From: Paraspadella gotoi
Taxonomy: Eukaryota; Animalia; Chaetognatha
Assembly (NCBI GenBank): GCA_051294375.1
Contig: JBJCIZ010001164.1
Coordinates: 1 to 15,020 of the forward strand
Length of the DNA: 15,020 nucleotides
Direction: 5' to 3'
Every line of letters begins with the position of its first letter. Position 1 is the stretch's first letter. The notes beneath the pieces are model-generated. The model worked only from the letters and a program-made list of their open reading frames with translations, ran no database searches and was not told the DNA's origin. Below, one piece after another: positions 8,085 through 15,020 of this stretch. A program made the translations under genes and the position numbers.

Positions 8085-8515
8085 CGGTCCGGTCGGCCGC
8101 CCCTCAATTTTGTCGGGCATTCACTTATACATGCCTAAGAACATCGAAATTAGGATAAAATTATGGCCAAAAAAAAAAAAACGATGATCCGTCCGTCCGG
8201 TCTGCTCGTCCATCCCACCTCTAGCAAAAAACTCTATTAATCATTTATGTTTAATTAATTAGTCAATAATTAATTAATCAGTCAATCAATTAATTATTAT
8301 ATCAATCAATTTATTATCTATTAATTAATATTCAATCAATCGATTTATTTATCAATTAATTAATTATTTAATCAATCAAGCAATCAAGTCAATCGTTATC
8401 GGCATTATTGTCGTCGTCGCCATCATCGTCGTTGCTTTTGTCATGGTAAGTGACGAAAAACAAACATTTTGGATCAAATTAATTAGTTTATTAATTTATT
8501 AATTAATTACCGCTA
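8085..8515 (+). mobile_element. DINE-1/HINE-like fragment: conserved block, GTCC microsatellite, then TAAT/CAAT array
   Basis: 8111-8228 matches 1-110 and is followed by an (A/C)ATTAAT-rich array at ~8235-8395. AATTAATTACCGCTA at ~8501-8515 resembles AATTAATTATCGCTA of copy A. Confidence 0.5.
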
Positions 8516-8738
8516 ATGATCGTGCGAGTGGAAATGAGTTTCAATGGAAAAAACAAAAGTCATATTTACTTGAAGAATTTTTACTTATATTTACTCATAA
8601 TTGAATAAAAATTGGATAGATAAATGAAAATGAAATTTTGTGTGTGGGTAGGAAACTATGAGATTAAGCTGGATATAAGTTTTTGATGGAATCGTAGGAG
8701 TGGAAAAGAGTTTAAAACAAAAAACCAAAAGGCACATT

Positions 8739-8914
8739 TATGTCAATTGTCCTAATTTTGTCAGTGGACCAAATTAAGCAAGTTAACCAAATTATGCCAG
8801 TTGACCAAATTATGCCAGTTGACCAAATTATGCCAGTTGACCAAATTATGTCACTTGACCAAATTACATCAATTGACCATATTATACCAATTGTCCAAAT
8901 TATGCCTGTTTACC
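8739..8914. repeat. 18-bp minisatellite, about 10 units, consensus TATGCCAGTTGACCAAAT
   Basis: Three perfect units at 8793-8846 with degenerate units on both sides; period is exactly 18 throughout. Confidence 0.97.
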
Positions 8915-8953
8915 TGTTTTCTCCATCCATTCCTTACCTTCATTCTCTCCGCT

Positions 8954-8978
8954 NNNNNNNNNNNNNNNNNNNNNNNNN
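8954..8978. other. Assembly gap (25 N)
   Basis: Run of exactly 25 N. Confidence 0.99.
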
Positions 8979-9012
8979 TCGCCCTACGCGTGTAAAGCCT
9001 GCCCGATCCGAC

Positions 9013-9175
9013 CTCTTGCCAACTCGAGGGAAGCGGAGAATTCGATATTCCACTGCGTTGATGTCGTCCATCGTTTTCAGGCAATTATCTAAACCAAAAT
9101 CTAGAGACCCTATGCTATCTTATGAATCCGTCCGTGGTTAATAATCTGAACCGAACTGCCACCAAACACCAGCGC
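9013..9175 (+). repeat. Direct repeat copy 1 (partner at 14886-15020), upstream of the hairpin array and twister
   Basis: GCCAACTCGAGGG..GGAGAATTCGATATTCCAC.GCGTT.GATGTCGTCCATCGTTTT..GGCAATTATCTAAAC.AAATCTA is shared for ~90 bp; weaker gapped similarity continues to CAGCG(G)C. Confidence 0.85.
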
Positions 9176-9196
9176 TATCCTTCGCACAATTTCAAG

Positions 9197-9279
9197 CGAG
9201 CCATTGACGTGCTCGGAGGCACCAGTCATTCGCCTCCCGACCCAAAGGGTCGGGGTTTTCTAGCCCCGGTGGCCACACG
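9197..9279 (+). other. Array of abutting GC-rich hairpins upstream of the twister
   Basis: CGAGC/GCTCG (9197-9215), GGAGGC/GCCTCC (9215-9237), CCCGACCC-AAA-GGGTCGGG (9236-9254), GGGGT/GCCCC (9252-9267), GTGGCCAC palindrome. Confidence 0.55.
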
Positions 9280-9280
9280 C

Positions 9281-9363
9281 CTAGCAGTTACGAGGGACGG
9301 GGCGCTTAACCCGCCTGTAACATGGTGTTACAGGCCTGTTCCGAAGCTCAGGGAACTCGCTCG
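9281..9363 (+). ncRNA. Twister self-cleaving ribozyme, P5-type permutation, with minimal self-complementary P1
   Basis: P5 CTAGCAGTTAC (9281-9291) / GAACTCGCTCG (9353-9363), imperfect. P2 GAGG (9292-9295) / CCC (9310-9312), one base short. Conserved G9296-A9297. T1 CGG (9298-9300) pairs with loop CCG (9341-9343). P1 GGCGCT (9301-9306). Cleavage motif U9307|A9308-A9309. T2 GC (9313-9314) / GC (9346-9347). P3 CTGTAACA-TGG-TGTTACAG. P4 CCTG/CAGG enclosing T-TCCG-AA-GC-T (cf. canonical UCCC-AA-GC). Confidence 0.75.
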
Positions 9364-9544
9364 ATTGTTTGAACGGGTTCTTCAACTAACACATAACAAA
9401 ATTACTTATCTCGTGCATTGGTGAGCACCGACTCCAACACACAACCAGCAACAACAATAACTTTCAGGCGATATGCCTTCAACCTGGCGATGCCAATTTC
9501 CGCCCACAACACAGTGGAAAATATAAGTCATCATTTTTACTTTT

Positions 9545-9684
9545 ATTTTAAAGCGACATCAATATGATAGCTGTATATAAATTTATTATTAAATATTAAA
9601 ATTAATTAATTAATTAAATTATCGATTATTTAATTAATTAATTTTTTGTAGCAGACTCCGATAATGTTTGCTCAAACTGGTTTT
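9545..9684 (+). mobile_element. DINE-1/HINE-like 3' fragment, copy B
   Basis: AAGCGACATCAATATG..., then (TAAT)n, then GTAGCAGACTCCGATAATGTTTGCTCAAACTGGTTTT; homologous to 6426-6604. Confidence 0.6.
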
Positions 9685-10312
9685 TGTTGTATTCTTGTGC
9701 ACTTCGTTGCCCGATTTAAATCGATGTTAAAAACAAACCGCCTTGAAGTAGACAGTAATTATTGTTTGTGCTAGTAGACTAGAAACCATTCAATATAAGA
9801 GTATGTTACTGAGATCCAGACAGTGGATCCCTTATTAACCGCCGCGCTCTCAAGCTCGTATCCCTCTTAATTATATAATTTGCTAGTATGGGGGGGAGGG
9901 GACTAGGCGTGGCTAGAACCATCCAGACCTGGCGGTGTCTTGGCAGAGGATCTGACAGTTAGCCTTGCGCTCTCGGGCAAAACCCATGGTATGGAATGGC
10001 CCGCTGATCTAAGAATTCGAAGGAAACGCCTGTTTGTCGTGGAGTATTTAGCAAATATCCACCATCACCCCCTTCTCTCCAGTACACCCTGAGCCCTAGC
10101 ATTCGTAAAACTCCATTTATAATACAATAAAATGAATATCATAATAACTCAGCTATATAATATATTTATATATCCCCATGCCACCATCTTTCCAACGGTA
10201 AAACACATGTACTCACACTACACACTACTATCTCACCACCGCGACTTCTTGTTTAGTTCTGTTCAACCCACTAGATTGGTTTTCCGCGCTTAATTAATTC
10301 TTAGGGCCTCAC

Positions 10313-10636
10313 AATTCTGTCCGGAAAGGTGGCGTTTAATAAACCAACATTAAACAGTTTGAAATCTTTTATAGTTGTCATAAACGCACTTGGACATTCG
10401 CGGCGGTCAGCTTTAATGATAATAGATTTTTGGATATGAAATTTAATTGTAGACATTTCAATGTCCCGGGACAGGAATGCATTATCGCGATATATTTCTT
10501 CATCGTGCGGCAGAAGTCTTTTAACCAAAATTTATCCCATTTGGATTTCTGAGACAGCCATGGGATTTTATCTTTAACCTCGTGGCTGAGCAGCCATAAC
10601 AAAAGTGTCTGCTAGAGCTTGTGACTCGCTGAGACC
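10313..10636 (-). CDS. Candidate host exon, Ly6/three-finger-like (ODR-2/HOT-like) extracellular Cys domain, frameshifted
   Basis: On the minus strand a polypyrimidine tract and cAG acceptor (10638-10637) precede it, and a GTgagg donor starts at 10312. The stitched translation RHFCYGCS.HEVKDKIPWLSQKSKWDKFW...NAFLSRDIE(C)LQLNF...KADRRECPSAFMTTIKD resembles the CYxC...C...CxSxCxT pattern, but one expected Cys reads Phe and several indels are needed. Confidence 0.35.
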
Positions 10637-10638
10637 CT

Positions 10639-10680
10639 GAGAGAAGAGAGAGAAAGAGAGAGAAAGCGAGAGAAAGAGAG
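10639..10680. repeat. (GA)n-rich tract
   Basis: Direct inspection. Confidence 0.9.
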
Positions 10681-11488
10681 CAGATGACGAATGCATTAAA
10701 ATTACTGCTAAAAAACGCCCACGGATGGAGGAGAAACTGTTACCCTTAGGCGATCCTTTTTTTGCCGGGTACCCCTCCGAGTTTTTTAACGCTAATATGA
10801 CCCCGGCGGGTAGTCTTACCGATTAACTTCTATACTTATAAACTATCGAGTTTGCTTAAAAGTACCAAAGTTACTTTAAAAAAAGCACCAGGGTAGCCAT
10901 ACATAAAGAAAATGCACATAATACCCCACCATAATACGTTTATAATACGTTATTGAATCAACGGAAACCAGTGCTGCGCCAAATACATGTAAATCACTTC
11001 AAAGCGTCTTAAATCTTTGAACTGTTAAGACCTGCGGCACAAATAACATTTTGCTACTTGCAAAAATATTTTGTAAATCAACAATAATATTTTTTTTTTG
11101 TTTCAATATTATGATTAAAATGCTTTTGATCAATTATCGTCGCTTTAAATTTTTTTTTTTTTTACCCGTTTAATAAATTCGACTCGAGTTATCGTATTAT
11201 TTGACGAAAAGGGAATTAAAATGAAAAGAAGAAAGCCGAAAGCCGATAGGAGGCCTAAAGGTAAACGGGTTAGCGGGTTGGATAGGAGCAATGGCTGAAC
11301 ATGGACTTATGCGTGGCCAGATTTACAAGAGAGCCCTTCCCCTTGCGGTTTCGATCATCCGACTCGATTAAAAAAAAAAATATACTTAATATGTCAACTA
11401 CAAGGAATTTGTCGCGTTGAAAAAAAAAAATACTAATTATCTCTGGAAAATCTCGTTAAGGCCGCAGAGGTTTTTGCAAGAAAAATGT

Positions 11489-12831: not shown

Positions 12832-14885
12832 GTATGGGGTTTTTAATCCTGTTTTGTTGCTACCTTAACATTGGTAAGAGATAGAAGGGAAGAGATCACA
12901 AAATAAATTTATGAAAAACATGCCTAATGTTATAATTATTGTGAACGCTTACTGTCGAATCCTTTGCCTCAACATCTCGGGGGGTTCGGCGAGATTTCCG
13001 ACCGAAGGCTTCGTAGTGGATGCTAAATCTCGACCCTGGAGCCCCATAGAAAATAATAAACATTTTTTCTACACCTTACTTTAAAATTACTTTTTGTCTA
13101 TTTCAAAACTATTTGAAACGCTTTTAAGCGGCTAGAAATAAAGGAGCGGTGAGACACCGAGGGGGAAGAAGTTACGGATTTTGTAGCTCAATTTTTCCAT
13201 TTCTTGTCGAAAAGTCCTGTCAACTCTTCGTTTTAAACCACATTTCTGCATCCTTCTGCAAATCATTTTCCGTTGCCTCACTTCAAGCTAATCTTCCTGT
13301 AATAACATTTGATTTGCTTTGCCACATCAATTTTTCGCTCCCTTTGCCACTGCCTTGACACCTCTACTTGGCCATTTTTATTCCCATTCTTTTTTCCCTC
13401 CATCATCCCCATTTTTTTTCTCTCCCCGCCCACGTTCACTGGCGCGCCTGGAGTGGACGGGGGCGAAGGCCGCCCCTTTCGACAGCGGGCCGTCGCTAAA
13501 TTCCATTTTGCGAAAACAAAGAATTTGGAAAAATCCGAAAACAGATTTAGCGGCGCTGGTGAAAAAAAAGCGGAGGAAATTGAAGGCGTGATGAATAATG
13601 AAATATTGTGGAACCAGGAAAGAACGTTTAGTTTTCAGAAGTGATCGTCATCTTCCCCCCAAAAAAATTATTTTAAAATTAAAAAAAAAATAAATAAATA
13701 AAAAACTAATAGTAGGTTAGTTGACGCTTTCACCTTGGCAAAGGTCGACTTAAAATCCAATTTTTATATTGCAGAAAAAAATCTTCAAAATCTCTTTAAG
13801 TTTTAGTTTCGCGTTTCATTTATTTTTTTTTTTCCCGGGAATTGTTCCCCCCCCCTTCCCGTTTTTAAAAAAAATTTCGGAGGGATACTTGAATATTCAA
13901 GTTAATCAGTTAAATATGACGAAAAATTCATAGAGAAAAATAAAAATAGATAAGAGCGAATATATAATTATTCAAAAATTTGTGAGAAAAAAAAATGTGA
14001 TAGAAAATCAGCTCGGAATAATTTTTTTTTTTATGTAAAAAAAAAAAAAAAAGAAAACCAAAAAAAATTATTCCCTTTTTACGAAACTTCACTCCACTTC
14101 CTTTGTTAAATCTTATCTCTCACAATTCTTTCCTTTCCTCCTCACCCTCATTTCTTTTTATTCCTTCGTTCTTTTTTTTTTCCCCCCGGACTTCCTTGGC
14201 TCGCTATTTTTTCTTTTCCTCTCCTTTCCTTTCCTTCCTTCCTTCCCTCCCTCTTTCTTTCTATTCACAGATGGAAAAGAGGAACGGTTCGAGTTACGTT
14301 TTATCTGGAGACTCAAAAGACTCTCCTGCTGCAGCCGTCGTTCGTCGACATCCGTCTCTAAAGGTAAAGCCGCTCCGCAGCCGACGCGATCTTCCATTTC
14401 ACCTTTCACTAGTTTTGATAAAAATAAAAGATTTTCAATTCGACCTTCTTTTGAAATTCACTCTTTTTTTTTTTTTTTTCAAATTATACAATTTTTTAAA
14501 ACCAAAACGGTAATTCAAATTCTGAGTTGCGTCCGTGTAGTTCGACCACGCATACCATTTAGACCATATATATAAATATATATATAAACACATATATAAT
14601 AAATTGATGAATGACGAAGTATTCCCTAAGATGTTGAGATTTTTTTAACGTAAGTTGGACAGACCAACGAGAGACAGACAGAGTCAAAGAGAGAGAAAAT
14701 GAAAGCTAATTATTAAATGGTTGAATAAGAAAAAAAAAAACACGCTCACAGAAAAGTAAGTTTGCTAACAGACCAGCTCATCTTTCTTATTTTACGAATA
14801 ACTGTCACTAAACCAATTATAGAAATATTAATCAATCGCCTTTGAAACGTCCCTAACTATTAGACCAGCCATCCAAAACATACTC

Positions 14886-15020
14886 TCTCTGCCAACTCGA
14901 GGGGAAGGAGAATTCGATATTCCACGCGTTTGATGTCGTCCATCGTTTTGGCAATTATCTAAACAAATCTAAGGAGTATCATTATGGTGGACTAAAATCC
15001 ACCAACCATTCATCAGCGGC
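14886..15020 (+). repeat. Direct repeat copy 2 of 9013-9175, running off the window edge
   Basis: Offset is 5873 bp at GCCAACTCGAG (9018 vs 14891). Confidence 0.85.

Follow-up and report, generated by a model that had tools for sequence, protein, structure and literature searches.

The window, that is, the whole stretch of 15,020 nucleotides analysed here, is repeat-rich; its microsatellites and its lack of long frames suggest a eukaryotic host. A Pfam search returned 0 matches in 106 of the window's 193 frames of at least 38 aa, and these 106 frames yielded no remnant of an RT or endonuclease, a test weakened by the frequent indels. One repeat, shared by positions 1-110 and 8111-8228, includes a poly-A run and a (GTCC)n tract, and we take it to resemble DINE-1/Helentron-type short elements. 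A minisatellite with an 18-nt period and 9.8 copies occupies 8738-8914, directly before a gap of 25 N; both N runs in the window have this length, presumably a mark of long-read gap filling. At 9237-9253, 30 nt upstream of the motif considered below, stands a perfect 7-bp GC-rich hairpin followed by a T run. The window holds no second copy of 9100-9540, tandem or otherwise, and the hammerhead core CUGANGA does not occur on either strand of 8900-10700.

The motif itself (9283-9361, forward strand throughout) reads as a circularly permuted (type-P5) twister-like fold and is the sole match to our pairing descriptor within the window. According to the descriptor its ends are joined by P5, in which 9283-9291 pairs with 9353-9361 over 8 bp with single bulges at 9290 and 9358. 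The upstream strand of P2 (9292-9295) makes two of three pairs as read and all three if A9293 is an extra base; a P2 of 3 bp is also seen in the Rfam-scored twister loci L096, L125 and L132. An alternative register with GAGGG at 9292-9296 was ruled out, as it gives no P2 pairing. The central segment 9296-9312, GACGGGGCGCUUAACCC, comprises G9296, A9297, the T1 strand CGG, the hexamer GGCGCU, UAA and the P2 strand CCC. The G and A (9296-9297) match GA in the Rfam Twister-P5 consensus, and the G takes the general-base position, a role described for the conserved twister G (PMC5408937; here and below, citations refer to the accessible text of each paper). The pseudoknot strand T1 (CGG, 9298-9300) has its partner CCG at 9341-9343, a two-sided change relative to GGG/CCC that occurs naturally in locus L320, which Rfam Twister-P5 scores at 49 bits. 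The loop-less, self-complementary hexamer stands in the P1 position (9301-9306), and the following UAA (9307-9309) contains the cleavage site predicted between U9307 and A9308 by analogy with published twisters (PMC8501958). The downstream P2 strand CCC and the second pseudoknot strand T2 (GC, with its partner GC at 9346-9347) occupy 9310-9314, followed by the P3 hairpin (9315-9333) with 8 Watson-Crick pairs, a 3-nt loop and a pair probability of 0.99 as read. P4 (CCUG/CAGG) and L4 (U CCG AA GC, 9340-9347) together span 9335-9352. The same P4 is found in the P1-type twister loci L340, L354, L395 and L453; as read, a U-U pair (9339/9348) replaces the G-C that is invariant in twister P4, and the G-C returns if both U are extra bases. 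The window thus has the type-P5 strand order P2'-GA-T1'-P1-UAA-P2-T2-P3-P4-L4 with the ends at P5, together with the conserved G, A, UAA and L4 word U-NNN-AA-GC and both pseudoknots (T1 of 3 bp, T2 of 2 bp). It lacks the P1 hairpin of this type, having a 6-nt linker that offers no loop beyond one G-U pair.

Block-wise dinucleotide shuffling of the window yielded 55 core matches in 4822 shuffles, none of which had a P3 of at least 7 bp (the window has 8), and four of which had a P5 of at least 8, the value in the window; a smaller run gave a core match in 6 of 400 shuffles. Given that the descriptor tolerances were chosen after the window was seen, the core rate is optimistic, though the margin in P3 is wide. 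Pairing of the flanks extended into a rod was not above shuffles (239/300). Searches with the Rfam twister model (RF02684, Twister-P5) returned no match at E<=1 in the window and none at E<=10 in 9150-9500. Our own model, built from 29 P5 twisters (29 of the 35 listed, near-duplicates dropped), ranked 9293-9352 first among 6 matches, but at a non-significant 7.8 bits and E 0.87. Such scores, and the flaws of P2 and of the P4 closing pair as read, would be expected of a chance look-alike that is no ribozyme. Both the Rfam model and our own, however, leave pseudoknots unscored and penalise a missing P1, and Rfam's gathering score also misses six clear P1-type twisters (L309, L319, L326, L327, L328 and L332). 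Since none of the 4822 shuffles reaches the core plus P3, and the compensated T1 has a natural precedent in L320, a chance origin is very improbable, and the motif is very probably a real twister-type fold.

The flaws of the helices are best considered together with the quality of the sequence. The DNA of the window is of raw-read quality, with about 8% extra bases. In the 119-column alignment of 1-110 with 8111-8228, 2 columns are mismatched and 10 are gapped; the 94-column alignment of 9013-9103 with 14885-14971 has 10 gaps but no mismatch, and 7 of the gaps stem from extra bases in the copy that lies 200 nt from the motif. A continuation of the latter repeat would be indicated by homology between 9104-9200 and the end of the window, which was not significant (218/2000). 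Dropping five single bases (9290, 9293, 9339 or 9340, 9348 and 9358) renders P2 (3), P3 (8), P4 (4), T1 and P5 (8) Watson-Crick, in a search that left out 9296-9335 and confined its 4- and 5-base steps to likely zones. For a stretch of 79 nt the expected number of extra bases is about 6.1. Because the flaws of P2, P4 and P5 vanish with a number of removals near this expectation, they are consistent with read error, and the copy seems to be young and not decayed; we infer that the five bases are read errors. They account for these flaws but not for the short P1, as errors in this region consist of single-base indels, mismatches being almost absent, and would therefore not remove six or more bases. 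The chance that the hexamer itself holds no extra base is about 0.62; two of its five distinct one-base removals keep the GCGC core, and four of nine two-base removals are in-register palindromes.

The initial annotation had read only 6 nt between the T1 strand and UAA, too few for a hairpin, and this parse is correct, as 32 distinct natural P5 linkers measure 12-30 nt and are hairpins by eye. These linkers were drawn from a viral scan allowing 2-30 nt (47 loci) and from four further loci, with a 5-nt sub-match inside the L137 hairpin left out. The hexamer was also rightly described as self-complementary when terminal G-U pairs are allowed, since GGCGCU pairs with itself at all six positions and forms a self-duplex of -8.3 kcal/mol. 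On the same terms 216 of the 4096 possible hexamers (5.3%) are fully self-complementary, and 47 form a self-duplex as stable as that of GGCGCU (1.8% at local composition). Taken alone, the palindrome is a 2-5% event and modest evidence. Many natural P1 stems start with GGC and finish with GCC or GCU, and among 224 single deletions that shrink natural P1 hairpins to 6 nt, 68 (30%) likewise leave a self-complementary linker, so that the palindrome is compatible with a dimer design as well as with a deletion in this copy alone.

Palindromes in the corresponding position were found in Naiad elements, for which the last 500-600 nt of 32 of the 54 consensi in File S5 of PMC8557442 were inspected by eye, names being assigned from file order and headers. 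Five of these tails (Scon, Mmer, Mgal, Mphi and Bpla) contain a P5-order twister-like fold with a short P2, a P3 hairpin, a 4-bp P4 with G-C closing and an adjacent P5, and the remaining 27 show no such fold in the part inspected. After the T1 strand the five carry the loop-less palindromes GGAGCGCTCC, GGTGCGCACC, TAGCTAGCTA, TGATGCATCA and TGGCGCCG, each followed by a second near-palindrome. Given that these centres remain palindromic despite sequence change, which a hairpin loop would not need, they favour pairing between copies for the class, the five counting as related bivalve families that are not fully independent. Window-like words revealed no matching family in the Naiad supplement, where line breaks can hide words. 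Another eight of the 32 tails (CGi, Sglo, Olur, Tgra, Pmar, 1_Skow, 1_Pfla and 1_Chem) share a different arrangement of GGGTG, a 10-nt palindrome, CAG and, later, CACC, in which the palindromes vary (for example TGACCGGTCA, TAGCTAGCTA, TTGCATGCAA, CCACATGTGG and ACTCTAGAGT). Judged from its sequence, this GGGTG motif is possibly a second palindrome-armed ribozyme, and we take it to recall twister sister. Five nematode Naiad tails (1-3_Nbra, Hcon and Hpol) end in CTGA(C/T)GAG ... GAAAC words with long flanking stems and are hammerhead-like; some are labelled only HHR_core or half core in PMC8557442.

These tails also bear on the reading that the copy in the window is a deletion derivative, perhaps inactive, of a longer P1 hairpin or of a two-palindrome Naiad linker whose middle went missing, for example between two UAA words. 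The second palindrome of Naiad_Mmer and Naiad_Mphi has TAA as its first and its last bases, and its loss would give the layout of the window; the frequency with which collapsed hairpins remain self-complementary and the common GGC starts and GCC or GCU ends of natural P1 stems point the same way. All other helices are, however, mismatch-free once the five extra bases are set aside, as in a young copy, and the other GC-rich hairpins near the motif are intact. A deletion is an unlikely origin of the short linker.

Published twisters indicate that P1 can be dispensed with, as the initial annotation had stated. A P1-deleted mini-twister cleaves at a near wild-type rate (PMC5408937), and P1 flaws did not reduce cleavage among 1948 type-P1 twisters (PMC11662667), but cleavage of P1-less twisters has also been called inefficient (PMC8501958). 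In that survey of type-P1 twisters, cleavage fell from 0.76 to 0.58 when the fourth P4 pair was flawed (PMC11662667), a penalty that would apply to the window if the U-U pair is real. The only dimer mentioned in the accessible text of PMC5408937 is a crystal artefact.

The stability of alternative structures was computed from nearest-neighbour energies, in which pseudoknots are not counted. Closing GCGC with a single G-U pair would cost 3.9 kcal/mol, which leaves the monomer without P1. In the monomer, the pair 9300-9311 of a rival hairpin (9298-9301/9310-9313) has a probability of 0.74 against 0.03 for P2, pseudoknot energy being left aside. With the five bases dropped, a single monomer is predicted to favour this hairpin at -30.6 kcal/mol over the twister fold at -27.2 kcal/mol. 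In the same version the strand-swapped dimer, whose two hexamers form a 6-bp P1 in register, has a nested structure and reaches -66.1 kcal/mol, or -57.5 kcal/mol without the hexamer (a gain of 8.6), against -54.4 kcal/mol for two twister-folded monomers and -61.2 kcal/mol for two monomers with the rival hairpin. As read, the swapped dimer (-42.5 kcal/mol) falls short of two monomers with the rival hairpin (-45.2 kcal/mol), and in each of the three versions computed, an unconstrained cofold has its minimum in a different structure. An entropy cost estimated at ~8.5 kcal/mol at micromolar RNA would cancel most of the gain, and tandem arrangement therefore matters.

It could be argued from the published cleavage data that the motif is a natural P1-less twister cutting as a monomer, in which the six bases do no more than join T1 to the site of cleavage and the palindrome arose by chance or survives from an old stem. 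The 5% prior for a palindrome would allow this, and the P5 order would hold the cleaved strand both covalently and by P2, such that P1 would not be needed for binding. This reading sits poorly with the palindromes kept at the P1 position despite sequence change in five Naiad families, with the predicted preference of the monomer for the rival hairpin and with the result that no short non-palindromic P5 twister was found among the matches listed in the viral, GTDB and metagenome scans. Cleavage as a simple monomer is, in our view, unlikely.

The initial annotation proposed instead that two copies exchange strands to form a shared 6-bp P1, such that cleavage would be favoured in tandem or multimeric transcripts, and called the motif a possible dimer-dependent twister. 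The exchange agrees with the nested dimer gaining 8.6 kcal/mol and with the folds in 5 of 32 Naiad tails, but the word 'dependent' is not supported, P1 being reported as dispensable. In the mechanism that we propose, a loop-less palindrome of six bases takes the place of the P1 hairpin and would pair with its counterpart in another copy. Within tandem transcripts, copy n would then contribute its downstream half and copy n+1 its upstream half to a normal P1-type twister whose P5 loop is one unit long and whose P1 is built from the two hexamers, and cleavage at U9307/A9308 would release unit-length RNA. In a lone copy the rival hairpin would mask the T1 and P2 strands, and pairing of the hexamer would disfavour it. 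The presumed setting of the motif is the tail of a retroelement that has many copies and is probably Penelope-like. We tentatively favour, at a probability falling somewhat short of even, a shared-palindrome P1 by which cleavage in tandem or abundant transcripts would be favoured by the dimer and not strictly dependent on it. It is doubtful that the motif would be an obligate two-copy twister, in which the single shared 6-bp P1 would enable cleavage only in tandem or concentrated transcripts; on this stricter reading it would be the smallest of a set of unpublished palindrome-armed P5 twisters in Penelope-like tails and would parallel the dimeric hammerheads by convergence.

Searches of sequence collections for relatives produced many candidates. 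Short-linker patterns gave 91, 27, 39 and 12 loci in viral sequences and 120 of about 2500 in a further run (4 of 64 parts), 9 loci in GTDB, and 120 of about 330 in metagenomes (24 of 64 parts). No true short-P1 P5 twister is present among the matches listed; these collections hold little animal DNA and are mostly prokaryotic, so that the blank says little about animals. Loci L309, L319 and L332 proved to be tandem or plain P1-type twisters, L333 has a 12-nt hairpin linker, and further filter passes are long-P1 twisters, while L037, L269, L303 and L359 are weak matches judged to be chance, as is the single match of the bivalve-type pattern in viral contigs. An element-like pattern had 0 matches in metagenomes, a weak negative because it assumed a 4-bp P2 and the P4 as read, and blastn against phages gave just 3 short weak matches. 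Several arrangements of ordinary twisters were noted along the way. Type-P5 twister pairs stand 240-300 nt apart in phage contigs (L096, L098, L132 and L137), and in two genomes of gut bacteria (L327 and L328) a P1-type twister has a RAGATH-16 RNA as its neighbour. In the related phage contigs L319 (106-210) and L309 (minus strand), P1-type twisters are paired head to tail with a 6-nt spacer, the second twister having no good 5' P1 strand and both pairs falling below the Rfam gathering threshold. The junction of two such adjacent P1-type twisters mimics the short-P1 P5 form exactly, down to the 6-nt spacer, and the window could in principle hold a junction of this kind. It has, however, just one L4 word (at 9340), a second GA-CGG half that would fit is missing from the vicinity, and the flanks pair as P5 directly at the motif, which makes this explanation highly improbable.

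A natural dimeric or palindrome-armed twister was not found in the literature searched, which excluded most subscription papers and in which supplementary alignments could hold short-P1 cases. The accessible texts of PMC10085705, PMC6765202, PMC7761336, PMC13725137, PMC8557442 and bioRxiv 10.64898/2026.07.22.740005 (0 occurrences of 'twister') describe no such twister. If the preferred reading of dimer-favoured cleavage is true, two unrelated ribozyme classes would have converged on a helix shrunk to a palindrome, and cutting would sense tandem arrangement or copy number. P1, dispensable in vitro, could then act as a switch, giving an 80-nt concentration-dependent ribozyme. It would also bear on the seeming lack of ribozymes in Naiads, as it appears from the accessible part of PMC8557442, and would explain why such motifs escape Rfam. 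Should the monomer cut alone, the motif would still represent a P5 twister that naturally lacks P1, in a genome of eukaryotic appearance.

Among known systems, the window resembles the bivalve Naiad folds, with which it shares the P5 order, a short P2, a P3 hairpin, a 4-bp P4, an adjacent P5 and a loop-less palindrome after T1. Two of them (Naiad_Mgal and Naiad_Bpla) have the same CCUG/CAGG P4, and the palindrome of Naiad_Bpla has a GGCGCC core. The Naiads differ in having two palindromes in a linker of about 20-25 nt, whereas the window has one of 6 nt, and in their pseudoknots, with T1 of GGU and ACC or UCC and T2 of AC/GU or CC/GG against CGG/CCG and GC/GC in the window. Naiad elements have an ORF with an N-terminal GIY-YIG and a C-terminal RT and occur as partial tandem copies (pseudo-LTR); no coding remnant was found in 106 frames of the window, a test that indels weaken, and 9100-9540 has no second copy there. 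With these differences the element may function like Naiads at most, and it is not assigned as one. Provided that accurate copies bear it out, the window adds a minimal form that has a single palindrome, in register, and other pseudoknot pairs. The accessible text of PMC8557442 reports no canonical hammerhead in Naiads and makes no mention of twister.

Among defined ribozyme families, the type-P5 twister (RF02684) shares with the window its strand order, GA, UAA, T1, T2, the L4 word, P2 and P4; the window differs by lacking the P1 hairpin, by its long P3 and P5, by its setting in eukaryote-like repeat DNA and by going unscored by Rfam. Schistosoma Perere-3 (RTE) retrotransposons carry type-P1 twister variants at their 5' end; these retroelement-linked twisters still cut with a poor or missing P1 (PMC8501958), but they derive P1 from the target site, and the accessible text, with 0 occurrences of 'dimer', describes neither a palindrome nor a proposed dimer for them. 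Their type-P1 order is not present in the window, which has no fitting downstream GA-CGG half. The analogy drawn at the outset with hammerheads has a precedent, as dimeric hammerheads with a short palindromic stem III are known from Penelope-like elements (PMC6765202), but it is weaker than was implied, since those require stem III and twister P1 is reported as dispensable. The dimer-cleaving minimal type-I hammerheads of Penelope-like elements and animal retrozymes (PMC6765202, PMC7761336) belong to another ribozyme class, and for the window dimer action is predicted only; in both, a core helix has shrunk to a short palindrome that two copies could share.
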